Origin: Thermoanaerobaculia bacterium
GTDB taxonomy: Bacteria > Acidobacteriota > Thermoanaerobaculia > UBA5066 > Gp7-AA6
Assembly: GCA_035500755.1 (NCBI GenBank)
Contig: DATJXB010000067.1
Coordinates: 36,023 to 100,022 of the forward strand
Length of the DNA stretch: 64,000 bases
Direction of reading: 5' to 3'
Shown here one piece after another: positions 4,956 through 47,018 of the stretch; within the stretch, counting starts at the first letter, position 1; each line of letters begins with the position of its first letter. The position numbers were made by a program, and so were the translations under genes. Under the pieces are notes generated by a model. That model was not told the origin of the DNA and did not search any database. It saw nothing but the letters and a program-made list of their open reading frames with translations.

Positions 4956-4957
4956 GT

Positions 4958-25877: not shown

Positions 25878-26471
25878 TCAGGACTTCGTGCGATCGGCCC
25901 GGATGTTCAGGTCGACCCGCGGCACCGCTCGCTGCGTCTCGTCCTTGAGCTCGAAGAGCTCGACCGGCTGGAACTTGAACGTCTGCGCGATCAGATTGTC
26001 GGGGAACATCTGCTGCGCCGTGTTGAAGCGTGTCGCGATGTCGTTGTAGAACTGGCGCGCGAAGCCGATGCGGTTCTCCGTCGAGGAGAGCTCCTCCATC
26101 AGCGCCTTGACCTGCTCGTTCGACTTCAGCGTCGGGTAGTTTTCCGCCAGGGCGAAGAGGCGCGAGAGCGTGGCGGTCAGGGCGTTCTCCTTGTCCGCCG
26201 CCTCGGCCACGCCGTGCGCGGCGACCGCGGAGTTGCGCGCCTGGATCACCTTCTCGAGCGTGTCCTGCTCGAACTGCATCTCGCCCTTCACCGCGGAAAC
26301 CAGGTTCGGGATGAGGTCGTGCCGGCGTTTCAACTGGACGTCGATCTGCTTCCAGCCGTTGGAGACCTGGTTCCGGAGGGAGATGAGGTTGTTGTAGCGC
26401 CAGATGGCCCAGATCGCGCCGACGACGGCGAGAACGACGAGCAGCGTCAGGCAACCTCCGATGGCGGCCAT
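25878..26471 (-). CDS. LemA-family protein
   Basis: 197 aa: N-terminal TM, then ...WRYNNLISLRNQVSNGWKQIDVQLKRRHDLIPNLV...ENYPTLKSNEQ..., the conserved LemA core. Confidence 0.85.
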   Translation of the reverse strand: MAAIGGCLTLLVVLAVVGAIWAIWRYNNLISLRNQVSNGWKQIDVQLKRRHDLIPNLVSAVKGEMQFEQDTLEKVIQARNSAVAAHGVAEAADKENALTATLSRLFALAENYPTLKSNEQVKALMEELSSTENRIGFARQFYNDIATRFNTAQQMFPDNLIAQTFKFQPVELFELKDETQRAVPRVDLNIRADRTKS

Positions 26472-26529
26472 TTCTTTGGAGTGATCCCCTACCCGTTTCT
26501 TACGAAGACGGCCCTCGACGGTTTCCGCC

Positions 26530-27657
26530 TCACGAGTTCAACCCCTGGCGCAGCTCCCGGGCGAGGATTTCGACCCCCGACCGGGTTCCGCCCGTGAGCT
26601 TTTCCTTCCAGATGGTCTCGGTCTCGAACCGGCGGTCGCCGATCGACTCCGCCCACGGGCGCAGGGCGGCGTCGAGCTCGCCCGCCGACCAGACGTCCCC
26701 GCCGCGCTTGCGGACCATCGCGATCACGTAGGGCACGATCCGGATGAAGGCCCGCAGCGAGGTCGAGCTCTTGATCGAGTACTTGCGGCCGGCGAAGGCG
26801 GCGGGGAAGGCGCGGGCCGCCGCCTTGAAGTAGTTCAGGAAGAAGCGCCGTGAGTTCTCGCGGAACTCCCGGGCGATCCGGCCTCCGGCGGTGTCGATCG
26901 CCGCGAACACGTCGCGCAGCTCGTCGGCCAGCGAGGCCTGGGTCACCGAGCCCTTGCCGATCCCCAGCACCTTGATCGAGCCCTTCAGGGGCGAGCCCTC
27001 GTCCTCGTTCAGGGTCCGGATGACGTCGTGGGCGGCGGCCAGGTTGTCGTCGCGATAGAGCCGGCGGCCCGCCAGCGAGATCAGGTGCGACGGGTTCAGT
27101 TTCGTGTGCTTGCTGTTGATCGTCACGAAGAGCTCGACGACCTGGTCGGCCGTCAGGCTGTCGAAGACGACGGCGGGGACCTGGAAGTCCTTCAGGCTGT
27201 GCTTCTCCGCGAGCTGGTGCAGCGCGAGAAGCCGGTGCTGGCCGTCCAGGGCGCGGAGGATCCCGGACTCCTCGGGCAGCTTCAGCGACCCGGCGTCGGA
27301 CCGTCCGCTCGACGGGGAAAACTCCAGGCGCTTCTCCGACACGAGGAGAACGCTTCCCGGAATCGCGGGCAGCGTGCCGGAGTCGGCGCACTGCAGGTAA
27401 TAAGCGACGAGCTCGTCGATCTTCTTCTTGATGATGGGGCGCTGGAAGGCCTGCTCCGAGGCCGAGATCTTCCGTTCCAGGAACTCCCAGTTCACCCGTC
27501 CCGCCGCGACCTTCGCGTGGCCCCGCGTCGTCTGGCTGCCCGGCCCGAAGGAGAGGACCTCGAAACCCACCAGCGACTGGAGGTCCTCTCCCGACAGGAG
27601 AGCCTCGTAGAAGCGCACGCCGAACTGATTCAGGCGGAGCGAGGGAACCGAGATCAT
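26530..27657 (-). CDS. DGQHR-domain protein (DndB-like, ParB/Srx-fold)
   Basis: ATG with GGAGG RBS (MISVPSLRLNQFGVRFY...). Signature ...LRALDGQHRLLAL... plus ...FVTINSKHTKL... The upstream 172 codons of the table ORF are not coding. Confidence 0.75.
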   Translation of the reverse strand: MISVPSLRLNQFGVRFYEALLSGEDLQSLVGFEVLSFGPGSQTTRGHAKVAAGRVNWEFLERKISASEQAFQRPIIKKKIDELVAYYLQCADSGTLPAIPGSVLLVSEKRLEFSPSSGRSDAGSLKLPEESGILRALDGQHRLLALHQLAEKHSLKDFQVPAVVFDSLTADQVVELFVTINSKHTKLNPSHLISLAGRRLYRDDNLAAAHDVIRTLNEDEGSPLKGSIKVLGIGKGSVTQASLADELRDVFAAIDTAGGRIAREFRENSRRFFLNYFKAAARAFPAAFAGRKYSIKSSTSLRAFIRIVPYVIAMVRKRGGDVWSAGELDAALRPWAESIGDRRFETETIWKEKLTGGTRSGVEILARELRQGLNS

Positions 27658-28193: not shown

Positions 28194-28952
28194 GTGAAAA
28201 GCGCTGTTTTAGGGCTCCTGACGCTCGCCGGAGCAGCCGTGCTCGCCGCCTCGCCGGGCGACGAGCGGGTGTACGCCTCGCACCTGATGGTGGATCAGGA
28301 AGTCACGGTGGCGGCCCGCATCACGGGCATCATCGACACGATCCTCGTCGACCGCGGCAGCGCCGTGACGCAGGGCCAGGTGCTCGCGACGCTCGAGGCG
28401 AGCGAGTACGACGCGGCGATCCGGCAGGCCAGGGAAGACATGGACCTGAAGAAGATCGAGTACGAGCGGGCCGAATCGCTGGTCTCCTCGAGCGTCATGA
28501 GCGCCCAGGATCGCGACGAGAAGAAGGCCCAGTACCAGGTCGCCGTCGCGACGTGGGAGCGGGCCAAGGCGGTGCGCGACTACACCGTCATCCGGGCGCC
28601 CTTCGCGGGGATCGTCACGGAGAAGTACGCGCGCCTCGGCGAAAAGGTCATCGAGGACAAGAACGACCCGCTCTTCAAGATCACGGCGGTCGAGCCGCTG
28701 CTCGCCCGCGTGTACCTGCCGGAGGAGCAGCTCCTCCGGGTCAAGGTCGGGGACCGCGTCGAAGTGGTCGCGGATCGTTTCCCCGACGTGAAGACGAGCG
28801 GCGAGGTGCAGTTCGTCAGCCCGACCGTCGACGCCGCGAGCGGCACCTTCCAGGTGGTCGTGCGCGTCCGGAGGGACCCCGCCCGCACGGTGCTCCGGCC
28901 GGGCCTCGCCGTTCAGGTGCGATTCGCCCAGCCCGCGGCCGGGACGCGGTAA
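28194..28952 (+). CDS. HlyD-family / RND-type periplasmic adaptor (membrane-fusion-protein-like), short form with N-terminal signal anchor
   Basis: GTG start (VKSAVLGLLTLAGAAVLAAS...), then the biotin-lipoyl-like motif ...VAARITGIIDTILVDRGSAVTQGQVLATLE...IRAPFAGIVTEKYARLGE..., a short alpha-hairpin and a beta-barrel domain. No cognate pump gene adjacent. Confidence 0.7.
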   Translation: MKSAVLGLLTLAGAAVLAASPGDERVYASHLMVDQEVTVAARITGIIDTILVDRGSAVTQGQVLATLEASEYDAAIRQAREDMDLKKIEYERAESLVSSSVMSAQDRDEKKAQYQVAVATWERAKAVRDYTVIRAPFAGIVTEKYARLGEKVIEDKNDPLFKITAVEPLLARVYLPEEQLLRVKVGDRVEVVADRFPDVKTSGEVQFVSPTVDAASGTFQVVVRVRRDPARTVLRPGLAVQVRFAQPAAGTR

Positions 28953-28968: not shown

Positions 28969-29669
28969 ATGGCCGGAAAGCCGCGCTCCTCGGCCCGTCT
29001 GCGCACGACGCTCGACCGGGTCCTCGTTCACGACGTCAAGAACGTTTCCTTCCGCCTGCGGCTGCTGCTGTCCAATCTCGACGAGCACTGGGACGATCCC
29101 CAGTTCCGGGAGACCGTCAAGGAGCTGCTGGCTTCGACGGTCGAGCGCCTCGAGCAAGCCGTCGGGCGGCTCTCGACCGACGAGGACGCCGTCCTCATCA
29201 AGGTCTCGCTCGACGTCAACGGCCTGATCCACGAGGTCGTCGCCCGGCCGCCGCGGCGGCAGCGTCCCGGGGCCCGGGCGGCCCCGGCGCGCCTCGCCCT
29301 CGGACAGGTGCCCCGGATCTGGGGCGACCCGTTCTACCTAGGCGACGCCTTCGCGAGCCTGCTCGAGAACGCGGCCGAGGCCGCCGGTCCGGACGGCCGG
29401 GTGCTGGTGCGGACGTTCGCGACGGGCTCCGGCCGGCGCGCGCGCGTCGTGGTCGAGGTCATCGACAACGGATCCGGGATGACCCAGGAATTCCTGCGCG
29501 ACCGCCTCTTCCGGCCGTTCGAGACCACCAAGCCCGAGGGCGTCGGGCTCGGTCTGGCGACGGCCAGCCAGATCGTGCGCTTCCACCGCGGGACGATCCG
29601 GATCCTGTCGCAGCCGGGCGGCGGCACCCTCGTGCGCTGCGCGTTCCCGGCGGCCGCGGAGGCCTCGCC

Positions 29670-29673
<4 letters not shown>
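28969..29673 (+). CDS. Soluble sensor histidine kinase (HisKA + HATPase_c, essentially no sensor domain)
   Basis: 234 aa: H-box VLVHDVKNVSFRL; ATP-lid motifs ...ENAAEAAGPDGRVLVRT...VIDNGSGM...GVGLGLA. Confidence 0.8.
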
Positions 29674-31040
<1,367 letters not shown>

Positions 31041-31163: not shown

Positions 31164-31179
31164 TGGCCCCGGTCTTGCG
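31164..31179 (+). promoter_or_regulatory. Sigma-54 (-24/-12) promoter for the repeat-peptide gene
   Basis: TGGCCC-cggtc-TTGCG versus consensus TGGCAC-N5-TTGCA. GG and GC elements at correct spacing. About 11 nt from the implied TSS, about 30 nt upstream of RBS/ATG. Directly downstream of the sigma-54 activator gene. Confidence 0.65.
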
Positions 31180-31209: not shown

Positions 31210-31554
31210 ATGGCCAACGAAGTGAAAATCAGACTGACGGACGCCCAGAAGGCGAAGATCAAGGAAGCCACTGGGAAGGACCTTCCGGAGATTCACGTCG
31301 AGAGTTTCGGCTCCACGCCGGCGGTTTCGGCGCCCGCTCCGAGCGCTTCGCTCAAGTCGGCGAAGTCGATGCGCGCGGCGAAGTCGCTCCGCGCCGCCAA
31401 GTCGATGCGCGCGGCGAAGTCGCTCCGCGCGGCGAAGTCCATGCGGTCGGCCAAGTCGATGAAGGCGGCGAAGTCGATGCGCTCGGCCAAGTCCATGCGC
31501 TCCGCCAAGTCGATGCGCTCGGCCAAGTCGATGCGGTCGGCCAAGTCGCTCTAA
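31210..31554 (+). CDS. Small secreted-peptide-like protein: 48-aa N-terminal region followed by ~11 tandem basic hexapeptide repeats (AKSMRS/AKSLRA)
   Basis: ATG at 31210 with RBS AGGAGGGAAG 7 nt upstream: MANEVKIRLTDAQKAKIKEATGKDLPEIHVESFGSTPAVSAPAPSASLKS(AKSMRA)(AKSLRA)...(AKSL). Table ORF 31093-31554 is the same frame with a longer, RBS-less start. A rho-independent terminator follows. Confidence 0.7.
   Translation: MANEVKIRLTDAQKAKIKEATGKDLPEIHVESFGSTPAVSAPAPSASLKSAKSMRAAKSLRAAKSMRAAKSLRAAKSMRSAKSMKAAKSMRSAKSMRSAKSMRSAKSMRSAKSL
31351..31554 (+). repeat. Tandem 18-bp direct repeat (~11 units, consensus GCSAAGTCGATGCGCKCG), in-frame within the peptide gene
   Basis: Units begin at 31360, 31378, 31396, ... 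Each encodes A-K-S-[ML]-[RK]-[AS]. Not CRISPR: no unique spacers. Confidence 0.9.
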
Positions 31555-31573: not shown

Positions 31574-31603
31574 CGCCCCGCTTCGGCGGGGCGTTTTTTT
31601 TTG
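31574..31603 (+). terminator. Rho-independent terminator after the repeat-peptide gene
   Basis: gccccgc-ttcg-gcggggc followed by a 9-T run. Confidence 0.75.
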
Positions 31604-31699: not shown

Positions 31700-33853
31700 C
31701 TACCACCAGATCACGGTCTGGAGCCAGTGGCGCAGGACGCGCCACGAGCGCGACAGAAACGAGCGCCGGCCGAGCGAGATCTTGGCGTGCCCGGTCATGC
31801 CGGGCAGATAAGCGCCATCGGGGTTGTCGAAGGCGACGACCGCCACGAAACGCTCCGGCAGGTCGCGCGCCCGGAGCGTCTGCGTCGTGCCGTCGGCGGT
31901 GTGGGGCAGCTCGTGCGCCGCCGCGCCGACCTGGACGATGCGTCCTTCGAGGATCCGCGCGGGTCTCGCCCTCAGCTGCATCGCCACCGGTGCCCCCGGG
32001 TGCAGGTAGGCGAGCAGGCGCTCGGAGACGGGAATCTCGGCCTTCAGTCGGTCGCACTCGCCGACGCGCGCGATGACGGCACCGGCGGGAACGAAGCGAT
32101 CCGCCAGGTCCTGGGTTCGGCGGGTGAGCAGGCGCCCGGCGATGGGGCTCTCGACCGAGAGGCGCCGCAGGCGATCCTCCTCGCGGGCGAGCGCCATCGC
32201 GGCGGCGACCTCGCGGTTCTCGGCGTGGAAGACACCCTGGGCGTCGGCGGCGTCGCGCTGCCGGCTCGTGCGCTTGCGCGAGGCGTCGCGGACGGCCGAG
32301 GCGCCGGCGAATCCGGACGCGACGTCGGGGCTGTCGAGGACCGCGACGACGTCGCCCATCTTCACGCGGTCGCCTTCGCGGAAGCGCACGGCGACGATCG
32401 TGCCGTCGTCGGGCGCCTGGATCGCCGCCTCGGTCCAGGGTTGCAGCTCCGCCTCCGTCTCCAGTCTCCACGGCGCCCAGGGCACGATCAGTGCCAGCAG
32501 GAGGACGGCCCCTCCGGCGACGAGAGCCGTCCGGGATCGACGGGACATGAGCAACTCCTTCTTGTCGAGGTAGAGGAGGCGGAGGCCCTGGAGGAACGCG
32601 CGGACGTCCTTCCGGAAGAGGCGCAGCAGCGTCAGGATCAGGAGAACGAGGGCGACGTGGGGGAAGTATTTCGCGTAGAAGTTGTAGAAGAGCTTCGCGA
32701 GGAACACCATGATGAAGACGGTGAACCCGAGGGCGAGCGGGGCGTAGACGAGGAAGATCCGGCGCTTGCGCCGCGACAGGACCGGCACCTCGACGTTCAG
32801 GCGCAGGACGTGGCGCTTGAGCAGCGCGCCCAGGTACTCGATCGAGTCCTCGCGCAGCTCCGGGATCTCGAGGACGCTGCACAGGGCGTGGTAGCCGTCG
32901 ACCTTGCGGAGCGGGTTGATGTTGAAGAAGAGCGTGGAGATGCCCGTGAAGAGCATCAGCTTGTACGCGAGCTCGTGAAGCAGCGTGTCGGGGTACGACG
33001 CCACCCAGGCCGCGACCGCGAAGCTGCAGATGATCGCCTCGATGTACATGCCGGCCAGCACGACCCACAGCCGGTGCCACTTGTTCTGGAAGAGCAGCGC
33101 GTCGGTCGTGTCGCAGTAGAACGCCGGCATGAAGTAGAGCAGCGCGACGCCGATGTCGTGGACGTCGCCGCCGTAGAACTTGCAGACGTAGCCGTGCGCC
33201 ATCTCGTGGATCAGGCCGATGCCGCAGAGGATGACGAAGAACTGGACCGCGTCCCAGAACGGTTTGCGGAGAAACGCGTAGAGCTCGAGTGTCTGCTCCC
33301 AGATCGGGCCGAAGTGCCGGACGATGACGCCGGTCATCAGCGCGATCATCACGAGCGACACGGCGACGGTGGCGGGGCGCCAGATCCAGCGGACGTACTT
33401 CTGGGTCCGGTTCATGAACTCGTTCGGGTCGAAGACGTGGAAGGGGATGAGGAAGATGTCGAACCCTTCCGCCTTCTGCTCCGCCGTCCGGCGACGCGCG
33501 TCCTTGATCCAGTTCAGCTGCTCGAGGTTGCGCTCGACGGAGGACTTCTCGAGCAGGTCCATGTTCCGGAGAGACTCTTCGTACTCCGGGACGAGCGAGG
33601 CCTCGATCGGCTCGGTGAAGCGGGCCTGGTACGCGTCGTGGATCTCGGACAGAGTCCGCGTTCCGTCGAAGAGCTTCATGAGGTCCCAGGTGGCCTCGTC
33701 GAAGCTGTAGTACTGGGTCCGGTCGGGATTCTTGACGACCCAGTTGACCTCGCCCATCTGAACGACGCGGCGAATGACGAGGTTGCTCTTCAACCGCGGC
33801 CGGCCGGTCGAGCCCTTCTTGAACGCGGCCAGGGGAGCCGCGCCCGACTCCAT
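31700..33853 (-). CDS. Three-part fusion: N-terminal PqqD-like RiPP-recognition-element (RRE) domain, site-2-protease (peptidase M50) polytopic metalloprotease, C-terminal HlyD-like periplasmic domain
   Basis: C-terminal 717 aa of table ORF 31700-35161 (MESGAAP... start; MGEVNWVV at 33757 is the alternative). N-terminus ...YYSFDEATWDLMKLFDGTRTLSEIHDAYQARF...VPEYEESLRNMDLL fits the PqqD pattern (LNETGAxIWxLxDGxRTVxEI...). HEXXH (LIHEMAHGYV) inside a TM helix plus NINPLRKVDGYH (NxxPxxxxDG), the S2P signatures. C-terminal ...GTIVAVRFREGDRVKMGDVVAVLD...SPIAGRL... is HlyD/biotin-lipoyl-like. The upstream part of the table ORF overlaps the GAF gene out of frame. Confidence 0.75.
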   Translation of the reverse strand: MESGAAPLAAFKKGSTGRPRLKSNLVIRRVVQMGEVNWVVKNPDRTQYYSFDEATWDLMKLFDGTRTLSEIHDAYQARFTEPIEASLVPEYEESLRNMDLLEKSSVERNLEQLNWIKDARRRTAEQKAEGFDIFLIPFHVFDPNEFMNRTQKYVRWIWRPATVAVSLVMIALMTGVIVRHFGPIWEQTLELYAFLRKPFWDAVQFFVILCGIGLIHEMAHGYVCKFYGGDVHDIGVALLYFMPAFYCDTTDALLFQNKWHRLWVVLAGMYIEAIICSFAVAAWVASYPDTLLHELAYKLMLFTGISTLFFNINPLRKVDGYHALCSVLEIPELREDSIEYLGALLKRHVLRLNVEVPVLSRRKRRIFLVYAPLALGFTVFIMVFLAKLFYNFYAKYFPHVALVLLILTLLRLFRKDVRAFLQGLRLLYLDKKELLMSRRSRTALVAGGAVLLLALIVPWAPWRLETEAELQPWTEAAIQAPDDGTIVAVRFREGDRVKMGDVVAVLDSPDVASGFAGASAVRDASRKRTSRQRDAADAQGVFHAENREVAAAMALAREEDRLRRLSVESPIAGRLLTRRTQDLADRFVPAGAVIARVGECDRLKAEIPVSERLLAYLHPGAPVAMQLRARPARILEGRIVQVGAAAHELPHTADGTTQTLRARDLPERFVAVVAFDNPDGAYLPGMTGHAKISLGRRSFLSRSWRVLRHWLQTVIWW

Positions 33854-33894
33854 GGGGGCGGCGGAGGCGAGTCGGGCCGTCCGCGGCCTGGCGC

Positions 33895-36357
33895 TCACGG
33901 CAGCAGCGGCCAGAGCTTGAGCCAGAAGTAGCGCACGGGCTTGCGGAAGAGGGCGTAGCCGAGCGGTCGGGTCGCCGCCGCGACCTTTCCCGTGCCGAGC
34001 ATCCCGGGCTTCATCGCTTCGTCCGGGTTGTCGACGCGGGCCTCCGCGATGACGAAGCTCTCCTCGCCTTCCTGGCGGAGCTCCGCGCCGACGCGCTCGA
34101 CCCGGCCGCGGAACACGCGTGTCGGGTAAGGATTCATTTTCAGCGCGACCGGCTGACCCGCCTTGACCAGCGCGGCCTCGGCTTCGGGGACGGCGACTTC
34201 GGCGGTGACGCTGCCCAGATCGGCGACGATCGCGAGCTCCGCGCCGCGGGCGAGCGCCTGTCCGACGCGCTGCTCGACGTGCGGCGTGATCAGGACGCCG
34301 GCCGCCGGAGCGCGCAGAAGGGTCTTGGCGAGCTGCTCCTCGGCGAGCGCCCGCCGGGCCTTCTGCTCCTCGCACCGCGCGCGGGCCTCGAACATCGCCG
34401 CGGCGTCGCCCTCCTGGGTGTGCTGCGCGACGTCGCTCTCGGCGATCGCGAGGGCCGCCGAGGCCTCGGCCAGCGCGGCCCGGTAGGACTCGTCCTTCAG
34501 CGTCGCGACGACGTCGCCGGCGGCGACGCGGTCGCCCTCGCGGTGGAGGACCTCTTTGACGACGCCCTCGACGGCGGCCGTGATGGCGGCCCGGCGCGCC
34601 GGGAGCACGCGGACCGGCCCCTCCACGCGAATCTTCCACGGCACCGCGACAAGGGCGACCAGCACGATCCCCGCGCCGATCAGCCACGCCTGCCGCCGAC
34701 GGATCGGGATGTCGAGAAGCTTCCGGCGCTTCTCGAGCAGGGGGGCCAGGAACCCGGCGAGCGGGACCTGCTGATAGAGCTGGGCGTTGCGGACGGCGAC
34801 GGTGGCCTGGTTGACGAGGATCGCGAGCAGGTCGCGGTTCCCTTCGTCGAAGGCGAGGGGCTCGGCGCTCTCGAAGCCGAGCGCGCCGAGTTTTCCCTCC
34901 TCGTCCTTGAGGAGGACGCCGAAGAACGACTTGAGGCCCGTCTCGGCGAAGATTGCCCGGAACTTCTCGACCGTCTCCGGCCGCTCGGCCGTGATCTCGC
35001 CGTCCTCGGTCTGGGTGACGGCGACGTCGGTGCCGGAGAGGAAGACCCAGTTGAGCAGATCGTCCAGGCGCCGGACGTTCGGGTCCTTGCGGTCGATCTC
35101 CTTGGCCCCCGAGACGGCGCCGAGGCGGAACCGCCCCTTCTCGAAAATGCCGATGGCGCACCGGTCGTACGGGATCAGCGCGGACGTGGCGTTGACGACC
35201 GTGGCCATGACCTTGTCGAGGTCGAGGGTCGCCGTGATCTCGCGGCTGACGGCGAGCAGGGCGTCGAGCTCTTCGACCTTCTTCTCGGCCTCGTGCTGCC
35301 GCGCGGTGCGGAGCGCGCGCACCGCCTGGCGCGACAGGTCGGCGAGGAGCTCCTCGTCTTCCGCCGAGAACTCGGGGTGGCGGCCGCGCTTGTTGACGAG
35401 GACGAGCGCGCCCACGGGGATCTCGTCCTCCACGAGCGCGATGCCGAGCACCGAGCGCGCGAGGTAGCCGTCGTTCTCCGTGGCGACGGGATCACCTTCG
35501 GGGATCCGGTTGCGCCGCAGCGGCGCCTGGTCGGCCAGGAGGTCGCCGACGACCGGGCTCCCGACGGCCTCGGGCGCGTTCTCGACGTCGTAGTTCTCGT
35601 TGAGAGCGGTCGCGGCGAGCGTCACGTCCTCGCCGTCGAGCCGCCAGAGGGACGCGACCTCGGCGGTCAGGAAGTCGGCCGCTTTGCGCACGATGAGGTC
35701 CGAGAGCTCTTGCTCGTCGATGGTCGACCCGAACGCCTTCGAGAGGTCGTAAAGATTCGTCAGGCGCTCGATGGCGTGGAGCATGCCGACGGTCTTGCGC
35801 TCGGAGCGCAGGGCCCGGCCGAGGGCCGGCGCCGCCTGCTCGAGAAAGCGCTCGAGCCGCGCGAGCGCCTCGTCGGCGTCGGGCATCTCGGTGAAAAAGA
35901 GCGCCAGGAGTCCGACGACGAGGTTCTCGGCTTCGAGCGGCACCGCGAGGCACGCGCGGAAGCCGGGCGGCAGGCCGCGGACGAACGGGTCGCCGTCCGT
36001 GAGCTCCGCACCCGTCAGCACGATCGGCTGCCGGTCGCGGACGAGGTCGTGGACGAAACCGGTCTCTCGAGGCGCCGAACGCCTCAGGAATTTGTCGACG
36101 CCCTCGCCGGAGGCGCCGATGCAGAGAAAGAGCGGGTTGACGGTGTCGGGCGCCCAGAGCAGCGTCGCGTCGGCGCCGGCCATGACCGTGCTCCACCGGG
36201 CCGCCCAGCCGGAAGTCTGGGACAGGTTCTCGCAGAGGGCCAGCTCGGCGAGCGCCGTGACCTCCGCCTCCGCCGCCGAGGTGTCGGCCTCCTCGGCCGC
36301 GTCGCCGTCCTCCCCGTCGACCGGTTCGTCCTCCGGATCCTCGGGTTCGTCCGCCAA
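33895..36357 (-). CDS. Acidic N-terminal tail + three GAF domains + TM + C-terminal HlyD-like periplasmic domain
   Basis: 820 aa: MADEPEDPEDEPVDGEDGDAAEEADTSAAEAE (acidic), three GAF-like blocks (ends ...VGLLALFF, ...VGALVLVNKRG, ...LGALGFESAEP), a TM helix (WLIGAGIVLVALVAVPW) and an HlyD-like domain (...AAITAAVEGVVKEVLHREGDRVAAGDVVATL...LRAPAAGVL...). Confidence 0.8.
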   Translation of the reverse strand: MADEPEDPEDEPVDGEDGDAAEEADTSAAEAEVTALAELALCENLSQTSGWAARWSTVMAGADATLLWAPDTVNPLFLCIGASGEGVDKFLRRSAPRETGFVHDLVRDRQPIVLTGAELTDGDPFVRGLPPGFRACLAVPLEAENLVVGLLALFFTEMPDADEALARLERFLEQAAPALGRALRSERKTVGMLHAIERLTNLYDLSKAFGSTIDEQELSDLIVRKAADFLTAEVASLWRLDGEDVTLAATALNENYDVENAPEAVGSPVVGDLLADQAPLRRNRIPEGDPVATENDGYLARSVLGIALVEDEIPVGALVLVNKRGRHPEFSAEDEELLADLSRQAVRALRTARQHEAEKKVEELDALLAVSREITATLDLDKVMATVVNATSALIPYDRCAIGIFEKGRFRLGAVSGAKEIDRKDPNVRRLDDLLNWVFLSGTDVAVTQTEDGEITAERPETVEKFRAIFAETGLKSFFGVLLKDEEGKLGALGFESAEPLAFDEGNRDLLAILVNQATVAVRNAQLYQQVPLAGFLAPLLEKRRKLLDIPIRRRQAWLIGAGIVLVALVAVPWKIRVEGPVRVLPARRAAITAAVEGVVKEVLHREGDRVAAGDVVATLKDESYRAALAEASAALAIAESDVAQHTQEGDAAAMFEARARCEEQKARRALAEEQLAKTLLRAPAAGVLITPHVEQRVGQALARGAELAIVADLGSVTAEVAVPEAEAALVKAGQPVALKMNPYPTRVFRGRVERVGAELRQEGEESFVIAEARVDNPDEAMKPGMLGTGKVAAATRPLGYALFRKPVRYFWLKLWPLLP

Positions 36358-36397
36358 CTTGTCCTCGCCGAGCGTGGGCCGTGCCCGGTCGGCCGGC

Positions 36398-36733
36398 CTA
36401 GAAGCTGGAGACTGCCGCCTCGAGATCCTCGTGGATCTCGAAGACGGAGTCGAGCTTGGTCATCTGGAGGAGCTTGCGGACCTGCTGGCCGGCGTGGAGG
36501 AGCTTGGCCTGACCGCCCTCCTTCTGGGCGAGCGTGAGCGCCCGCACGAGCGCGCCGAGGCCGGAGCTGTCGAGGAAGCCGACCGCCTTCAAGTCGACGA
36601 GCAGGTTGGTCTTGCCCTCTTCGAGCAGACGCGTGACCGTCTTCTTGAACGTCGTCTCGGGCTCGCCGATGACGAGGTCTCCAACCACCGTCAGAATCGT
36701 GACGTCGCCGTCTTCGCTTGTCGTCAGGTCCAT
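36398..36733 (-). CDS. STAS-domain protein (anti-sigma-factor antagonist, SpoIIAA-like), first gene of the GAF-HlyD / M50-HlyD operon
   Basis: 111 aa from internal Met of table ORF 36398-38395: MDLTTSEDGDVTILTVVGDLVIGEPETTFKKTVTRLLEEGKTNLLVDLKAVGFLDSSGLGALV... Conserved DSSGLG phosphorylatable-serine region. Confidence 0.8.
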   Translation of the reverse strand: MDLTTSEDGDVTILTVVGDLVIGEPETTFKKTVTRLLEEGKTNLLVDLKAVGFLDSSGLGALVRALTLAQKEGGQAKLLHAGQQVRKLLQMTKLDSVFEIHEDLEAAVSSF

Positions 36734-37825: not shown

Positions 37826-38087
37826 CCCTCGCCCGGGGGCGGCATCGAATCTCCGGCGGGATGAGATCCGGGACGTCCGGTTTCTCGTATTCGTGTCTGG
37901 AGGTCCTCGAAGGCCGCATGAATCTTGACGTCGCGGCGGGGAGGCGGAGGTAAGATTCGGCGCCAATGGCGCTCCCCGCGGGAGGAGCGCGAGGCAAACC
38001 GGTCGATCGCAGGCGTAGCTCGGCACGGCCATGTCGGCTGGACCGAATTCGATGACGCCCCGTCGGGGCAAGAAAAGGAGACTGGGG

Positions 38088-38495
38088 ATGAAGAAGGGTG
38101 ACCTGACGACGAAGGCGATCGGGTTGGCGATCGCCGGCGTGCTCGCGGGCTCGGGCCTGGCGAGCGCGATTCCTGCCAAGAACGCGAGCGCGAAGACGAC
38201 CGCCGGCGACGAGAAGGCCAAGGACACGAAGGCCGCGTCGGACAAGCACGTCTGCAAGGGCCAGAACTCCTGCAAGGGCAAGGGCGGCTGCAAGAGCGGC
38301 GACGCCGGCTGCGCGGGCAAGAATTCCTGCAAGGGCAAGGGTGGCTGCGCCTCGGCCGACATGAAGCACTCCTGCAAGGGCATGAACTCCTGCAAGGGTC
38401 ACGGCGGCTGCAAGACGGGCGACGGCGGCTGCGCGGGCAAGAACTCCTGCAAGGGCAAGGGCGGCTGCGCGGTCCCGGTCAAGAAGGCGGCGTAA
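38088..38495 (+). CDS. Bufferin-like RiPP precursor (BUF_6/12Cys type): Sec signal peptide + 12-Cys core of four CKGxNSCKGKGGC-type repeats
   Basis: ATG at 38088 with RBS AAAAGGAG: MKKGDLTTKAIGLAIAGVLAGSGLASAIPAKNASA... then ...HVCKGQNSCKGKGGCKSGDAGCAGKNSCKGKGGCASADMKHSCKGMNSCKGHGGCKTGDGGCAGKNSCKGKGGCAVPVKKAA. Lower GC than flanks. Immediately upstream of the MNIO + DUF2063 genes. Confidence 0.75.
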   Translation: MKKGDLTTKAIGLAIAGVLAGSGLASAIPAKNASAKTTAGDEKAKDTKAASDKHVCKGQNSCKGKGGCKSGDAGCAGKNSCKGKGGCASADMKHSCKGMNSCKGHGGCKTGDGGCAGKNSCKGKGGCAVPVKKAA

Positions 38496-38505
38496 GTCGG
38501 ATCCG

Positions 38506-38535
38506 TTCTGCCCGGGGGTCCTCGCGGCCCCCGGG
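38506..38535 (+). terminator. Hairpin / candidate partial terminator (attenuator) between precursor and MNIO genes
   Basis: cccggggg-tcctcgcg-gcccccggg (perfect 8-bp stem) followed by a T-rich tract catttctcttt, in the 60-nt precursor-MNIO gap. Confidence 0.4.
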
Positions 38536-38555
38536 CATTTCTCTTTGACGACTCC

Positions 38556-39449
38556 ATGACCCCGAACGCTGCCTCCCGCGTCCCCGCCGTCCGGAACCGC
38601 TGGGGCTTCGAAGACCTCGGCATCGGCGTGGGCCTCCGGACCATTCACTATCCGCACATCCTCGAGAACCGGCCCGACGTGGACTTCTTCGAGATCCTCT
38701 CGGAGAACTACATGGACACGGGCGGCCGCCCTCTCTGGGTGCTCGACCAGGTCGCGGAGCGCTACCCGATCGTGATGCACGGCGTCTCGATGAACATCGG
38801 CAGCGCCGATCCGCTCGACCGCGAGCACCTGGCGAAGTTGAAAGCCCTCGCCGGGCGCACCAGGGCGCGCTGGGTGTCGGACCATCTCTGCTGGACCGGC
38901 GTCGCCGGCCGCAACACGCACGACCTCCTGCCGATGCCGCTGACCGAAGAGGCGCTCGCGCATGTGGCCGCGCGGGTCCGCCAGGTCTCGGAGATTCTCG
39001 AGCGCCCGCTGATGCTCGAGAACGCTTCGACCTACGCCGAGTTCGCGGCCTCCTCCATGCCCGAGTGGGAGTTCTTCGGTCGCCTGATGGAGGCGGCCGA
39101 CTGCGGCATGCTCCTCGACGTCAACAACGTCTACGTCAGCTCCTTCAACCACGGCTTCGACCCCGAGCGGTACGTGGACGCGATCGACCCGGCGCGCGTG
39201 ACGCAGTACCACCTCGCCGGGCACACCAACAAGGGCACGCACATCATCGACACGCACAACGACCACGTGATCGACCGCGTCTGGGAGCTCTACGCGCGGT
39301 CCTCGGCGAGGACGGGCAACGTCTCGACGCTCCTCGAGTGGGATGCCGACATCCCGGCCTTCGACGTCGTCCACGCCGAGGCCCTGAAGGCCCGCGCGCA
39401 CCGGCGCGCGGAGAAGAGGGACAAGAAGGTTGCCGCCGCCGCCTCTTGA
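38556..39449 (+). CDS. MNIO enzyme (DUF692, multinuclear non-heme iron oxidative enzyme; MbnB/BufB family)
   Basis: 297 aa: ...LGIGVGLRTIHYPHILENRPDVDFFEILSENYMDTGGRPL...YPIVMHGVSMNIGSADPLD...WVSDHLCWTG...LENASTY... match DUF692 blocks. Confidence 0.85.
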   Translation: MTPNAASRVPAVRNRWGFEDLGIGVGLRTIHYPHILENRPDVDFFEILSENYMDTGGRPLWVLDQVAERYPIVMHGVSMNIGSADPLDREHLAKLKALAGRTRARWVSDHLCWTGVAGRNTHDLLPMPLTEEALAHVAARVRQVSEILERPLMLENASTYAEFAASSMPEWEFFGRLMEAADCGMLLDVNNVYVSSFNHGFDPERYVDAIDPARVTQYHLAGHTNKGTHIIDTHNDHVIDRVWELYARSSARTGNVSTLLEWDADIPAFDVVHAEALKARAHRRAEKRDKKVAAAAS

Positions 39450-40278
39450 TCTCGGCCTGCCGCACTTGCAGCGGTGGATGCAGGCGGTGATCGAGCAGCC
39501 GGGCACCGTCGACGACGCGGTCGTCTCGCCCGCGGCGCGCCGCGAGCTCGACCCCGTCCGGATCGGCCGCGTGGTTCTCCCGTCGAAGACGCTCACGTCG
39601 GTCGAGCGCGTCGGCGTGTACCAGGGCATGTATCTCCTCCGGATGATCGAAGCGCTCGAGGGCGACTATCCGGCCGTCGCGCACTTCCTCGGCGACGAGG
39701 AGTTCGCCGACCTCGTGACCCGCTACGTCGCGGCGCACCCGTCGACGAGCTACACGTTCAACCGCCTCGGAAAGCGATTCCCCGAGTTCATCCAGGAAGC
39801 GCGCGGCGTCCGGAAGAAGGGCTTCGTCGCCGATCTCGCGCGCCTGGAGCTTTCCGTGACGGAGGTCTTCGACGCGCCCGAGTCGCCGGCGTGGCCGGAC
39901 GACGCGGTGGCCCGCCTCCCGAAGGAGGCCTGGGCGTCGGCCGTGCTCAAGCCGATCGCCGCGTTCCGGCTCGGGAGCTACGCCCATCCCGTCAACGCCT
40001 ACCTGCAGTCGGTCAAGGAGGAGAACCACGACCATCCGGGCGTGGGCCGCCAGGCGACCCGCGTCGTCGTGTGGCGCAAACGCTACGAAGTGTGGCGCCT
40101 CGAGCTCTCGAAGCCGGCCTTCGATTTTCTCGCCTCGCTCGCCAAGGGGCGTCCGTTCGGCAAGGCCGTCGTCGCCGCCGCCCGCGGCCTGCAGGGGAAC
40201 CCCGGCGAGCAGCTCTTCCGCTGGCTGCGCGACTGGGTCGCCGAGGGGATGTTCGAAGGCGTCCAGACGGCGGGCTGA
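39430..40278 (+). CDS. DUF2063-family protein (MNIO partner, BufC/MbnC-like)
   Basis: 282 aa, 20-nt overlap with the MNIO gene (translational coupling). N-terminal ...LPHLQRWMQAVIEQPG... conserved start of DUF2063. Confidence 0.8.
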   Translation: MPPPPLDLGLPHLQRWMQAVIEQPGTVDDAVVSPAARRELDPVRIGRVVLPSKTLTSVERVGVYQGMYLLRMIEALEGDYPAVAHFLGDEEFADLVTRYVAAHPSTSYTFNRLGKRFPEFIQEARGVRKKGFVADLARLELSVTEVFDAPESPAWPDDAVARLPKEAWASAVLKPIAAFRLGSYAHPVNAYLQSVKEENHDHPGVGRQATRVVVWRKRYEVWRLELSKPAFDFLASLAKGRPFGKAVVAAARGLQGNPGEQLFRWLRDWVAEGMFEGVQTAG

Positions 40279-44038: not shown

Positions 44039-44054
44039 TGGCACCCGCGTTGCT
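44039..44054 (+). promoter_or_regulatory. Sigma-54 (-24/-12) promoter upstream of the TonB-dependent-receptor-like gene
   Basis: TGGCAC-ccgcg-TTGCT, perfect match to TGGCAC-N5-TTGCW. About 50 nt upstream of AGGAGG RBS and the ATG at 44106. Confidence 0.65.
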
Positions 44055-44105
44055 CTCCGCATCCGTTGCGCCGACGCCTCGCCGGCGTAAGGAGGAATGA
44101 CGAGA

Positions 44106-47018
44106 ATGAACTGTCACCGACCGACGCGCCGGAAAGCGGCCTGGCTCTGGGCGGCGGCCCTCACCGCCGCGCTGGCCCTCGCGCCGCTCGTCTCCGCGCA
44201 ACAGCTCACCGGCAACATCTTCGGCAAAGTCGTCGACGAGCAGGGCGGCAAGCTGCCGGGCGTGACGGTCACGCTCTCCGGCATCGGCGCCGCGAAGACG
44301 CAGACGACCGACGCCCGCGGCGAGTTCCGCTTCCCGAACCTCGCTCCCGGCGTCTACACGCTGACCTACGAGCTCCAGGCATTCACGAGGGTCACCAACA
44401 GCGACGTGAAGGTCTCCGTCGGCCAGAACACGGAGACGAACGCGACGCTGAAGATCTCGAGCGTCGAGGCGACGGTCGTCGTCGAAGGCGCGCCGGCCCT
44501 GCTCGACACGCGGCAGGTCCAGACGGGAGCCGTCGTCGATCAGACCGAGCTGACGCAGATCCCGACGGCCCGCGACCCGTGGGTCATCCTGTCGACCGTA
44601 CCCGGCGTGCAGCTCGACCGCGTCAACGTCGGCGGCAACGAGAGCGGCCAGCAGTCGACGTACGTCGGCAAGGGCGCCGACTCGAGTCAGAACACGTGGA
44701 ACGTGGACGGCGTCACGATCACCGACATGGGCGCTCTCGGTTCGTCGCCCAACTACTACGACTTCGATTCCTTCCAGGAGATGCAGGCATCGACGGGCGG
44801 CAGCGACGTGACGGCCGCTTCGCCGGGCGTGCAGCTGAACCTCGTGACCAAGCGCGGGACCAACGACGTCCACGGCTCGGCCCGCTACTTCCTCGCCAAC
44901 AGCGACCTGCAGTGGAACAACGTCACGCCGGAGGACCAGGCCGAAGGCGTCGTCAACGGCGGCAACCGGATCAACGAGGTGCAGGACTACGGCATCGAGA
45001 TCGGCGGCCCGCTGTGGCGGGACAAGATCTGGGCGTGGGGCGCCTACGGCCGCAACCAGATCAACCTCTTCAACGCCCAGGGCAACCCCGACAACACGAC
45101 GCTGATCGACTACAACGCCAAGATCAACTGGCAGTTGTTCGACTCGACCTCGCTCGCGGGCACCTTCTCCAACGGCAACAAGGAGAAGTTCGGCCGCAAC
45201 GTGTCTTTCTCGCGGCCGCCGCCCGCGTCGTGGGACCAGACCGGCCCGACGACGATCTGGCGCGGCGAGATCTCGCAGATCTTCTCGTCGTCGCTGTTCT
45301 TCACGGCGTCCTACTCGTCCGTCTCGGCCGGGTTCTCGCTGACGCCGCAGGGCGGCACGGACGTGAACGATCTCTACATCAACGAGCAGGGGCAGTTCAT
45401 CGGCAGCTACCTCTACGCCGACACGGTCCGCCCGCAGAAGCAGGCGACCGCGAGCGGGTCCTACTTCTTCAACACGGGCTCGGTCGGCAACGAGCTCAAG
45501 TACGGGTTCAACTACCGGACGACCGACGTCGACTCCGTCTCCTCGTGGCCCGGCAACGGCAACTACGGGGACCTCGCGGACTTCAACTCGCCGGTCGCCA
45601 TCATGACCCGCAACGCGGTCCTGAACACGCGGCTGCGGTACTACAGCGGGTATCTCTCCGACACGCTGACGTTCGGGAACCTCACGATCAACGCCGGCGT
45701 GCGGTACGACAACCAACAGGGACACAACCTCGCCTCGACGACGCCGGCGAACCCGGTCATCCCGGATCTGCTGCCCGGCATCACGACCACCGACCAGCCG
45801 GCGCCGTTCACCTGGGAGAACGTCGTCCCGCGCATCGGCGCGACGTACGCGCTCGGCCAGGACAAGAAGACGCTCCTGCGGGCGAGCTATTCGCAGTACG
45901 CGGACCAGCTCGGGGCGAACGCCGTGGCGTTCACCAACGCCGGGGCGCTCGCCGGGCTCTACTACTACTGGAACGACGCCAACGGGGACCACGTCATCAC
46001 GCGCAACGAGCTGAACCTGAACACCCTGGTCTCGCACTACGGCGTCGACCCCGCCAACCCGGGTTCTTCCACGTCCCCCAACGTCGTCGACCCCAACTTC
46101 AAGGCCGGGAAGACGACCGAAGTCATCGCGGGCATCGAGCACGAGCTGCTCGACGGTCTGGTGGTCGGCGTGGCCTACACGTACCGCAAGTACGACGGCG
46201 CGCTTTGGCCCCATCGCACGGGGCTGACCGAGAACGACTACGAGGTCGGCGGCGAGCTGACCGGCACGCTCTTCAACGGAGTTCCCTTCCAGGTTCCGTA
46301 CTACCAGCTCAAGCCGGGCGTGGACGTTCCGGCGGGTCTGACCCTCTCGAACCGCCCCGACTGGAACACGACGTACAACGGCGTCGACCTGACCTTCCAG
46401 AAGCGGCTCTCCGACAAATGGCTGGTGCGCGGCGGCGCGACGTACCAGACGTGGAATCAGCACGGCGGCGCCGGGTCCTGCTACGACCCGACGAGCGACC
46501 GCGGCGGCAACAACGAGCTCTGGCCCGGCACGCCGATCGGCATCCAGACCGGCTCCACCTGCGCGGGCAACGACATTGCCGCGCTTCCCGCCGGCGCCGC
46601 CAGCGGCGCGCGCAACGAGGTCTTCCTGAACGCGCGCTGGCTCTTCAACGTCAGCGGGCTCTACCAGCTCCCGGCGGGCTTCGCCGTCGCCGCCAACTTC
46701 TTCGGCCGCGAAGGCTACCCGTACGTCAACTACTACCGGTTCGACCCGGGCGACGGTCTCGGCCCGCGCGACAACATCCTCACGCAGCTCTCGACGTACC
46801 GCTATGGCAACGTTTACGAGCTGGATCTGCGCCTGGAGAAAGTCATCACGGTCAAGCCGCTCGAGATCACGATCGCCGCGGACGTCTTCAACGCGGCGAA
46901 CTCGGGCACCGTGCTCCAGCGCAACGCGCGCGTCGACCTGGGCCCCGGCGTCTACAACCAGATCATCGAGATGCAGAGCCCGCGCGTCGTGCGCTTCGGC
47001 GCGCGGCTGTCCTTCTGA
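44106..47018 (+). CDS. Outer-membrane TonB-dependent-receptor-like protein with N-terminal carboxypeptidase-regulatory-like domain (Acidobacteria-type)
   Basis: ATG at 44106 (9-nt spacing from AGGAGG): MNCHRPTRRKAAWLWAAALTAALALAPLVSAQQLTGNIFGKVVDEQGGKLPGVTVTLSG...GEFRFPNLAPGVYTL..., then plug-like ...PGVQLDRVNVGG... and a long beta-barrel ending ...VRFGARLSF. The table start at 44097 has no RBS spacing. Confidence 0.8.
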   Translation: MNCHRPTRRKAAWLWAAALTAALALAPLVSAQQLTGNIFGKVVDEQGGKLPGVTVTLSGIGAAKTQTTDARGEFRFPNLAPGVYTLTYELQAFTRVTNSDVKVSVGQNTETNATLKISSVEATVVVEGAPALLDTRQVQTGAVVDQTELTQIPTARDPWVILSTVPGVQLDRVNVGGNESGQQSTYVGKGADSSQNTWNVDGVTITDMGALGSSPNYYDFDSFQEMQASTGGSDVTAASPGVQLNLVTKRGTNDVHGSARYFLANSDLQWNNVTPEDQAEGVVNGGNRINEVQDYGIEIGGPLWRDKIWAWGAYGRNQINLFNAQGNPDNTTLIDYNAKINWQLFDSTSLAGTFSNGNKEKFGRNVSFSRPPPASWDQTGPTTIWRGEISQIFSSSLFFTASYSSVSAGFSLTPQGGTDVNDLYINEQGQFIGSYLYADTVRPQKQATASGSYFFNTGSVGNELKYGFNYRTTDVDSVSSWPGNGNYGDLADFNSPVAIMTRNAVLNTRLRYYSGYLSDTLTFGNLTINAGVRYDNQQGHNLASTTPANPVIPDLLPGITTTDQPAPFTWENVVPRIGATYALGQDKKTLLRASYSQYADQLGANAVAFTNAGALAGLYYYWNDANGDHVITRNELNLNTLVSHYGVDPANPGSSTSPNVVDPNFKAGKTTEVIAGIEHELLDGLVVGVAYTYRKYDGALWPHRTGLTENDYEVGGELTGTLFNGVPFQVPYYQLKPGVDVPAGLTLSNRPDWNTTYNGVDLTFQKRLSDKWLVRGGATYQTWNQHGGAGSCYDPTSDRGGNNELWPGTPIGIQTGSTCAGNDIAALPAGAASGARNEVFLNARWLFNVSGLYQLPAGFAVAANFFGREGYPYVNYYRFDPGDGLGPRDNILTQLSTYRYGNVYELDLRLEKVITVKPLEITIAADVFNAANSGTVLQRNARVDLGPGVYNQIIEMQSPRVVRFGARLSF

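Follow-up and report, generated by a model that had tools for sequence, protein, structure and literature searches.

Adaptors such as E. coli HlyD, MacA, AcrA, MexA and EmrA (with TolC) are built from a single transmembrane (TM) helix with the N-terminus inside, a lipoyl domain, an alpha-hairpin and a beta-barrel, and HlyD has a cytoplasmic N-terminal region of ~60 residues before the TM helix. Site-2 proteases (S2P) are found in regulated proteolysis, as when SpoIVFB, together with BofA and SpoIVFA, cleaves pro-sigmaK. The STAS protein MlaB is bound to an ABC transporter, and the motif NK-Xn-F-X3-DE is the signature of GAF domains of the cyclic nucleotide (cNMP) type (PDE2/5/6, CyaB1/2). The cytoplasmic domain of HlyD is needed, and a construct without its helix fails in TolC recruitment or HlyB activation (PMC4446572). 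In daptide biosynthesis the leader peptide is removed by an S2P that carries a leader-recognition domain (RRE) (10.1101/2023.03.08.531785). Here we describe a seven-gene cassette that combines parts of these kinds. It lies in a window (the whole stretch of DNA that was analyzed) of 64 kb and ~70% G+C from a metagenome-assembled genome (MAG) of a Thermoanaerobaculia bacterium (Acidobacteriota). The gene at its center, GAF-HlyD, encodes an adaptor of the HlyD type in which the cytoplasmic part spans ~550 residues and holds three GAF domains; it is preceded by a STAS gene and followed by a gene for a fusion of RRE, S2P (M50) and a HlyD-like module.

We propose, with confidence just short of an even chance, that STAS and GAF-HlyD are subunits of a conserved, leader-guided apparatus for peptide processing and export. 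The gene set probably serves soil Acidobacteriota to cut and export very variable repeat peptides.

Conservation and organization of the cassette

One genome per species was scanned for relatives of GAF-HlyD. Relatives were found in 97 genomes, and the 80 loci returned all originated from Thermoanaerobaculia or Acidobacteriota MAGs. The cassette comprises genes for STAS, GAF-HlyD, the RRE-S2P(M50)-HlyD protein (M50 fusion), a repeat peptide, a sigma54-dependent response regulator (RR), a soluble histidine kinase and a short HlyD. The same seven genes were present in the same order in every Thermoanaerobaculia locus with enough flanking sequence. The repeat peptide was found in 69 of 69 such loci, the others being on contigs that end too soon. 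Among these informative loci there was no orthologous operon without a small peptide gene, and the link to such a gene that a first-pass annotation of this DNA had drawn is therefore real. The features of the operon that contains GAF-HlyD are as follows.

36398..36733, minus strand: STAS, SpoIIAA/RsbV-type anti-sigma-factor antagonist, 111 aa, first gene of the operon (PF01740, E=9e-18; TIGR00377, 68.6 bits, above the cut-off of 53.45)
33895..36357, minus strand: GAF-HlyD, bitopic, 820 aa, with acidic tail, three GAF domains, TM helix, periplasmic adaptor and C-terminal Trp-rich helix (Pfam, AlphaFold2 (AF2), Foldseek)
36253..36357, minus strand: disordered poly-acidic N-terminal tail, residues 1-35, net charge -16 (16 D/E and 0 K/R in the first 32 residues)
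35878..36252, minus strand: invariant pre-GAF helix (LAELALCENLSQTSGWAA) and GAF1, residues 36-160 (alignment of orthologues, AF2)
35308..35715, minus strand: GAF2, residues 215-350, with the signature NK-X6-F-X3-DE (best Pfam GAF stretch 214-349)
34768..35220, minus strand: GAF3, residues 380-530 (GAF_3 match 379-524; AF2 fold)
34630..34704, minus strand: single TM helix, residues ~552-576 (hydropathy peak 558-576; model helix 552-571)
33895..34629, minus strand: periplasmic adaptor of the membrane fusion protein (MFP)/HlyD type, with lipoyl domain, alpha-hairpin 623-677, beta-barrel and C-terminal helix RKPVRYFWLKLWPLLP (HlyD_D23, 77.7 bits)
31700..33898, minus strand: RRE-S2P(M50)-HlyD fusion, 732 aa, translationally coupled to GAF-HlyD (GTGA overlap; NF041824, 177.7 bits)
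33554..33784, minus strand: RRE, PqqD-like leader-recognition domain of the M50 fusion, residues 39-115 (fold comparison)

The order on the minus strand is STAS, GAF-HlyD, M50 fusion. STAS opens the Thermoanaerobaculia operon, as had been annotated (36733-36398 precedes GAF-HlyD), and adjoins GAF-HlyD in all 80 loci. The gap between the two genes is 40 nt and contains no predicted terminator. GAF-HlyD starts with TTG, with GAGGA 4 nt upstream, and its stop codon overlaps the GTG start of the M50 fusion as GTGA. The operon is transcribed apart from the repeat-peptide gene, which is located on the plus strand and is convergent with it. The STAS protein scores above its family cut-off and has a conserved phosphorylatable serine, the phospho-serine-type motif DSSGLG (D-S-S/T-G-L) being kept in 77 of 80 orthologues.

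Domains and fold of GAF-HlyD

The product is 100% identical to the NCBI entry 'GAF domain-containing protein [Thermoanaerobaculia bacterium]'. The architecture proposed in the first-pass annotation (acidic N-terminus, three GAF domains, one TM helix, HlyD) was borne out by Pfam, AF2 and Foldseek. Three stretches were each matched by Pfam GAF and GAF_2, and two of them by GAF_3. In the AF2 model (pLDDT 76.6) GAF folds were found at ~45-160, 215-350 and 380-525, linked by long helices, while residues 1-26 were disordered (pLDDT <50). Foldseek matched the GAF part to PDE2A at 5.7e-15, and also to the tandem GAF domains of CyaB2 and PDE6. The GAF2 signature residues N322, K323, F330, D334 and E335 were invariant or nearly so in 23 sequences, and distant relatives keep the motif as N[KR]..F..[DE]D. 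When the GAF region was compared with known regulator families the best hit was NifA with 34 bits against a cut-off of 528, so that the GAF domains do not match a well-known regulator family.

The periplasmic part scored 77.7 bits with HlyD_D23 (cut-off 30), 64.1 with HlyD_3 and 94.1 with TIGR01730, just under the cut-off of 94.9, and its fold matched MacA, AcrA and MexA at ~1e-13 (Foldseek). A conserved amphipathic helix rich in Trp forms the C-terminus of each of the two HlyD fusions; its sequence is RKPVRYFWLKLWPLLP in GAF-HlyD (33895-33963, minus strand) and RSWRVLRHWLQTVIWW in the M50 fusion (31700-31760, minus strand). It occupies the place of the membrane-proximal domain of canonical adaptors and is kept in distant relatives; the short HlyD is without it.

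The repeat peptide and its promoter

31210..31554, plus strand: repeat-peptide gene, 114 aa, leader residues ~1-41 and (SAKSMR)n core (tandem repeat 31358-31548, period 18 nt, 10.6 copies)
31164..31178, plus strand: sigma54-type -24/-12 promoter TGGCCCCGGTCTTGC 5' of the peptide gene (positional conservation across loci)
31579..31603, plus strand: intrinsic-terminator-like hairpin and T-run 3' of the peptide gene (hairpin prediction)

Neither the peptide nor its leader belongs to a Pfam family or, at significant scores, to an NCBIfam family. The peptides have an N-terminal region of ~40 residues in common (VkIkLTdaQKaKIkeATGkdmpEIRV.s.G.npAvs), followed by a core of tandem repeats with a period of 3-21 residues. 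The cores are very variable, with 61 different commonest units among 64 peptides. The first-pass annotation had described the peptide as poly-basic. This holds for most lineages, with cores such as (KSMRAA)n, (KSIAGRAAG)n, (APRAG)n, (KPLA)n and (GKPGLS)n, but not for one clade, where they are net-acidic or neutral, as in (AQDLS)n, (EEGLR)n, (NSADLA)n and (DDALR)n. Eight loci (L040, L041, L042, L049, L051, L053, L057, L058) have a tandem pair of peptide genes with the same leader and acidic repeats in both, and these tandem genes of the acidic-core clade sit ~0.2-1.5 kb downstream of the M50 fusion. Apparent frameshifts were seen within the repeat arrays of L029, L061, L073, L075 and L080 (long-read MAG assemblies), and these five loci were left out of the statistics.

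In 68 of 69 loci the peptide start was preceded, at a distance of 39-79 nt, by a -24/-12 motif, TGGY-N7-TTGC (Y is dC or dT and N is any nucleotide). The motif was found upstream of none of 80 STAS genes and of only one of 69 short-HlyD genes, and is present also in the distant loci L083-L085 described below. Within the window alone the motif was not more frequent than expected by chance (3 matches against 1.6 expected). Since its position is conserved across loci and it lies beside a gene for a bacterial enhancer-binding protein (bEBP), the peptide gene is most likely a sigma54 unit driven by the neighboring activator. Elsewhere in the window, a perfect -24/-12 motif, TGGCACCCGCGTTGC at 44039-44053 (plus strand), ends 44 nt before gene 44097-47018, which encodes CarboxypepD_reg and an outer-membrane beta-barrel. 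The spacing equals that at the repeat-peptide gene, and gene 44097-47018 may be a second sigma54 target.

The M50 fusion and the remaining cassette genes

29670..31040, plus strand: sigma54-dependent RR (REC-AAA+-HTH), PrsR-like, syntenic (Sigma54_activat, 230.8 bits; TIGR02915, 439 bits against a cut-off of 502.6)
28969..29673, plus strand: short soluble histidine kinase, 234 aa, DHp and CA domains only (HATPase_c; matches PrsK residues 482-679 only)
28194..28952, plus strand: short HlyD/MFP adaptor with an N-terminal membrane anchor, residues 1-19, syntenic and kept in distant variants (TIGR01730, 149.6 bits, above the cut-off of 94.9)

The M50 fusion scored below the cut-off of 300 with the model for the daptide RRE-fused intramembrane metalloprotease (NF041824) and below that of 225 with the YydH/LiaK model (44.6 bits). 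Its catalytic motifs HExxH and NPLxKxDG are invariant. The first-pass annotation was right in calling it an M50-HlyD fusion but overlooked the N-terminal RRE domain. A sequence search with the RRE against PDB gave nothing significant (PqqD, E=0.83), and its identity was settled by fold comparison, not by sequence. The adaptor modules of GAF-HlyD and the M50 fusion are 33% identical and paralogous. With the short adaptor at 28194, which the earlier annotation had also counted, the locus encodes three HlyD-type modules, and all three are conserved. The histidine kinase (28969-29673) has neither a TM helix nor a sensor domain. Database names for cassette proteins are generic: 'RND family efflux transporter MFP subunit' and 'putative peptide zinc metalloprotease protein', the latter being the JGI name for orthologues of the M50 fusion.

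Charge co-variation of GAF2, GAF3 and RRE with the peptide core

The net charge of each domain of every cassette protein was compared with the charge density of the core. Phylogenetic independent contrasts (PIC) were calculated on a neighbor-joining tree of GAF-HlyD and on an independent tree of the RR, and the screen covered ~23 domain tests. Three domains co-varied with the core with opposite sign.

RRE of the S2P fusion: mean net charge +1.6 at acidic-core loci and -5.6 at basic-core loci; PIC r -0.75 (GAF-HlyD tree) and -0.83 (RR tree)
GAF3: mean net charge -0.7 at acidic-core loci and -7.1 at basic-core loci; PIC r -0.65 (GAF-HlyD tree) and -0.70 (RR tree)
GAF2: mean net charge -9.8 at acidic-core loci and -13.4 at basic-core loci; PIC r -0.44 (GAF-HlyD tree) and -0.51 (RR tree)

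After removal of the three largest contrasts r was -0.51 for RRE, -0.43 for GAF3 and -0.34 for GAF2. Contrasts of opposite sign were found in 31 of 43 cases for RRE, 33 of 44 for GAF3 and 32 of 42 for GAF2, and the sign tests were passed. The relation was present also within the basic-core group alone (rho -0.42, -0.40 and -0.57, respectively). The periplasmic HlyD domain of GAF-HlyD, included as a control, gave no charge signal with either tree. Two further controls, GAF1 and the AAA+ domain of the RR, gave no signal in the robustness checks on the GAF-HlyD tree, and both had p<0.05 on the RR tree. The signals of the short HlyD and GAF1 vanished on the GAF-HlyD tree without the three largest contrasts and were significant on the RR tree. 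The charge of the leader moves in the same direction as that of the RRE; the effect is therefore not derived from the leader.

Sites of charge switching were A418, E420, N427, E454, S497 and E499 in GAF3, including E420->K and E454->R/K, and D67->R/K in the RRE. Although correlative, this co-variation is the strongest indication at hand that the variable core may be contacted by the RRE and by the cytoplasmic part of GAF-HlyD.

Distant variants of the cassette

An exhaustive profile search (305 clusters at E<1e-30) was made for the wider family. It includes full-length relatives of ~800 aa at 29-39% identity and versions of ~640 aa with two GAF domains, and has members in Terriglobia (Ca. Sulfotelmatobacter), Planctomycetota and Candidatus Dependentiae, where a short contig carries a pair of GAF-HlyD and short HlyD. 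In the list below, triad refers to GAF-HlyD, short HlyD and RRE-S2P-HlyD.

L083, unclassified 'bacterium': triad, kinase, bEBP, two STAS genes, peptide with leader and (GGRTP)n
L084 and L085, Terriglobia: triad, STAS, bEBP, basic peptide of 59-64 aa behind a -24/-12 motif
L088, unclassified: triad, bEBP, STAS, peptide with leader and (RKQALPKAAL)n
L087 (unclassified), L089 (Planctomycetota) and L090 (unclassified): triad, with a Crp-type regulator in place of bEBP and STAS

The M50-type partner in the distant loci is again RRE-S2P-HlyD, for which the daptide model gave 126-202 bits. A TolC-family gene (PF02321; TIGR01844, 5e-18) overlaps the start of GAF-HlyD by 4 nt in L090. The idea of the first-pass annotation that the HlyD-type modules form a trans-envelope conduit gains support from this translational coupling.

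Beside two of the Crp-type triads, at L089 13564-18039 (minus strand) and L090 1754-5149 (minus strand), we found genes for giant acidic proteins (1491 and 1131 aa, respectively) that have a high content of Pro, Asp and Thr and match no Pfam family. They contain repeats of the type PDGS...CPPGT.YDP.AGT..VP and have a basic N-terminus ending in ...IAPAM or ...IVAPGA. Judged by these features they may be cargoes of large size.

Near L083 and L089 we found SpoIIE-type PP2C phosphatases, of which one has FHA and GAF domains as well, and near L083 a cNMP_binding-FHA protein; the genes concerned are at L083 5229-6896 (plus strand) and 4272-5039 (minus strand) and at L089 5987-7270 (plus strand). They are hints that some distant cassettes may receive partner-switch or cNMP inputs, of which there are none in this window.

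Proposed mechanism and competing explanations

In the mechanism that we propose, the sigma54 activator, fed by the small soluble kinase, would turn on the peptide gene. The RRE of the M50 fusion would bind the ~40-residue leader in the cytoplasm, and the variable core would rest on a charge-matched platform formed by RRE, GAF2 and GAF3 on the same side of the membrane. The intramembrane metalloprotease would then cleave off the leader. The adaptor modules of GAF-HlyD, the M50 fusion and the short HlyD would build a periplasmic tube that docks to an outer-membrane channel of the TolC family encoded elsewhere in the genome, through which the repeat polypeptide would be released outside. GAF-HlyD would be the adaptor for docking or gating of the substrate, an enlarged counterpart of the N-terminal cytoplasmic domain of E. 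coli HlyD, sensing or holding the substrate and coupling it to the periplasmic assembly, while STAS, and possibly a ligand of the NKFDE-type GAF2, could modulate this step. Computation has shown the architecture, gene order and promoter, the RRE, S2P and MFP folds with their catalytic motifs intact, the paralogy of two adaptor modules, the charge co-variation and the TolC-family gene in the L090 operon; from these we infer binding, cleavage, export and gating as well as what STAS and the kinase do.

Several points speak against this proposal. The chief weakness concerns the path across the inner membrane and the energy for it: ABC, RND or MFS transporter genes were absent from every cassette examined (>70), including the one with an outer membrane factor (OMF) gene in the operon. 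Genes of MacB-like, ABC and MFS type do occur in the window, but without linkage to the cassette. Export of mostly cationic peptides opposes the membrane potential, and site-2 proteases are not known as translocators of substrates. In the search for a TolC-like partner that the first-pass annotation called for, one was found in the distant L090 operon; Pfam scans of the ORFs (open reading frames) in the 64-kb window detected no TolC/OEP gene. The charge co-variation is correlative, is based on neighbor-joining trees, net charge and ~23 domain tests, and rests on one large acidic-core clade and smaller shifts. The charge of the soluble kinase, too, varies with that of the core, and in the same direction (PIC r +0.47 and +0.61), which the model leaves unexplained.

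The main rival, which we regard as unlikely, is that the cassette is a signaling device based on regulated intramembrane proteolysis. By cleaving the peptide or some other substrate, the S2P would free a cytoplasmic regulator. GAF-HlyD, STAS and the HlyD modules would inhibit or sense the protease, in the manner of BofA and SpoIVFA with SpoIVFB, and the state of the envelope would be sensed by the periplasmic modules. It would account for STAS proteins, which are partner-switch regulators, for the lack of an inner-membrane transporter in any cassette, for the orphan soluble kinase and bEBP genes that adjoin the others, and for the kinase charge that co-varies with the core. However, hypervariable cores of low complexity (59-1491 aa in the wider family) are odd for a regulator with a conserved target, and three adaptor modules with hairpins of AcrA length, together with the TolC-family gene coupled to GAF-HlyD in L090, suggest a conduit. 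In addition, the relatives closest to the RRE-S2P among those characterized remove the leaders of peptides that are exported.

About equally unlikely as the whole explanation, but compatible with the processing and export proposed here, is that the triple-GAF array is mainly a sensor of a small ligand (cNMP or a metabolite) that gates the machine, with the charge matching being incidental. The invariant GAF2 signature and the cNMP-binding tandem GAF domains among the best structural matches (PDE2A, CyaB2, PDE6) agree with it, as do the Crp-type cNMP-binding regulator in or beside the operon in L087, L089 and L090 and the cNMP_binding-FHA gene near L083. Yet the NKFDE motif is structural and no proof of ligand binding, the cassette is without a cyclase gene, and the specific and robust charge co-variation of GAF2 and GAF3 is not predicted by a pure ligand sensor.

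The first-pass annotation had suggested that the acidic tail of GAF-HlyD, being electrostatically complementary to the basic peptide, acts as a chaperone or docking element. The tail is translated, since in most orthologues the sole start codon upstream of LAELALCENLSQTSGWAA yields the conserved N-terminus MADEPE.PED. Its length among orthologues is 14-52 aa and its net charge -1 to -21. In the window the charges of tail (-16) and core (+22) are opposite, and the topology permits contact, both being cytoplasmic before export. The long-tail clade has kept 0-1 basic residues in the tail, and the raw correlation between tail and core charge across 55 loci (rho -0.56 to -0.58) looked convincing. 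It was lost after contrasts on both trees (p 0.15-0.37), with r -0.12 to -0.14 on the GAF-HlyD tree (p 0.3-0.4) and -0.22 on the RR tree (p 0.15), and the match between tail and core charge was rejected as a candidate. Moreover, the basic-core loci L020, L030, L050, L062, L064, L067 and L079 have tails of 14-19 aa with a charge of -1 or -2, the tails of the acidic-core clade are short and still slightly acidic rather than basic, and relatives at 24-39% identity keep the whole system with no acidic tail. Electrostatic matching thus stands for the folded GAF2, GAF3 and RRE, where it is stronger and robust to phylogeny, but not for the tail. The variability of the tail, its absence from distant relatives and the lack of a signal in the contrasts indicate that it is a lineage-specific disordered appendage, with a composition conserved within one clade, and not a general docking element; docking or chaperoning by the tail is improbable.

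Slightly less probable still is that GAF-HlyD is the detached membrane sensor of the sensor-less kinase, a split PrsK-like arrangement that passes signals from the envelope or a ligand on to sigma54-dependent expression of the peptide and does not itself handle the peptide. The kinase consists of DHp and CA only, matches just the C-terminal 200 residues of PrsK, lacks a TM helix, and has a net charge that co-varies with the system. Nevertheless GAF-HlyD persists without the kinase in Terriglobia-type loci, which have the bEBP only, and in Crp-type loci; without exception it has the S2P fusion as its partner, in many cases with translational coupling; and its GAF domains have no specific similarity to that of PrsK. 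Finally, it is very improbable that GAF-HlyD is just one more efflux-pump adaptor, whose regulatory N-terminus is decorative and which has nothing to do with the peptide, as its database name 'efflux RND transporter periplasmic adaptor subunit' and near-threshold TIGR01730 score might suggest, when >70 cassettes offer no RND, ABC or MFS partner, the RRE-S2P fusion and the peptide are invariably syntenic with it, the gene overlaps that of the M50 fusion from stop to start, and domain charge co-varies with the peptide.

Genes flanking the cassette

The cassette is flanked at 24904-27654 (minus strand) by genes for a DndB/DpdB-like DGQHR protein, a LemA protein and an M48 peptidase, which are syntenic in L001 and L002; no evidence ties these genes to the system. 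PADLOC gave no defense-system match for the cassette proteins except for the generic AAA+ region of the bEBP. At 38031-40278 (plus strand) the window contains a bufferin-type RiPP (peptide made on ribosomes and modified after translation) locus, a known kind of system, which is syntenic beside the cassette in L001. It encodes a BufA2-like precursor that is rich in Cys and has two modules (NF050166, 51.6 bits, below the cut-off of 60), the MNIO maturase BufB (NF050167, 357 bits, above the cut-off of 310) and a HvfC/DUF2063-like partner.

Comparison with known systems

One distant variant (L090) carries a TolC-family gene within the operon, a point in common with type I and tripartite systems. 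The cassette differs from these systems in that there is no ABC, RND or MFS partner, the membrane partner being an S2P protease that itself carries an adaptor module, that three different adaptor proteins occur per system, and that the Trp-rich C-terminal helix replaces the membrane-proximal domain. Type I secretion in particular goes with an ABC transporter and with a C-terminal signal or RTX repeats in the substrate; the cassette has no ABC gene and the conserved element of the substrate is N-terminal.

The M50 fusion resembles daptide MpaP and the YydH/LiaK epipeptide proteases in having an N-terminal RRE and an M50 HExxH motif and in being encoded beside a short precursor whose leader is conserved and whose core is variable, but scores below the cut-offs for both. 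The cassette contains no MpaB/C/D/M, radical-SAM epimerase or ABC exporter, and the peptide ends vary. Compared to MpaP, the fusion adds a C-terminal adaptor module and an obligatory GAF-HlyD partner, and the cores are tandem repeats. The partners of SpoIVFB, BofA and SpoIVFA, are unrelated to those found here (GAF-HlyD, STAS, adaptors), and the substrate would be a hypervariable repeat peptide and not a sigma factor.

With the tandem GAF domains of PDE2A, PDE6 and CyaB2, GAF-HlyD shares long connecting helices and the NKFDE-type motif in GAF2; here, however, the GAF domains number three and lead into a TM helix and a periplasmic adaptor instead of an enzyme, and surface charge tracks the peptide. 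The STAS protein has the fold and the serine motif of SpoIIAA/RsbV. Neither a cognate kinase (RsbW/SpoIIAB) nor a PP2C phosphatase was found among the window ORFs scanned with Pfam (including 30 further ORFs), a SpoIIE-type phosphatase occurs near some distant loci only, and the Crp-type variants are without STAS. PrsK/PrsR of the PEP-CTERM/XrtA system are the best NCBIfam matches of the regulators (PrsR 439 bits, C-terminal PrsK 131 bits, both below the cut-offs), and a sigma54 promoter likewise precedes a low-complexity product of secreted type here. The kinase described here lacks the membrane and GAF parts of PrsK, and there is no PEP-CTERM signal or exosortase.

Full-text searches of the literature found no description of the cassette. 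It lies outside tripartite efflux and type I secretion because it has no transporter, outside the daptides because it scores below the cut-off and has no tailoring enzymes, and outside classical partner switching because no kinase or phosphatase is at hand. While its parts come from known families (MFP, GAF, STAS, RRE-S2P), their combination fits none of efflux pump, type I secretion, daptide, classical partner switching or known defense systems.

Acidobacteriota are among the most abundant soil bacteria and are genetically little studied. If the proposal is true, the cassette provides a new way for polypeptides to cross the diderm envelope and gives site-2 proteases and HlyD-family proteins wider roles. 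The peptides would form an undescribed family of cargoes under sigma54 control, in which the leader is conserved while nearly every species has repeats of its own; they could serve to recognize kin or strains, interact with matrix or minerals, or act as antimicrobials. The charge co-variation points to specific residues of GAF3 and RRE as experimental targets.

In its most specific form, which is possible but on balance doubtful, the proposal is a previously unrecognized trans-envelope route without ABC, RND or MFS components, in which an RRE-S2P-adaptor, a GAF-array adaptor, a short adaptor and a TolC-family channel export leader-bearing repeat polypeptides of 59 to ~1500 residues and the GAF/RRE platform co-evolves electrostatically with its cargo. 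Among described systems the cassette relates to leader-dependent peptide maturation and export coupled to MFP/OMF conduits, and there is a substantial chance that it represents a distinct secretion route.

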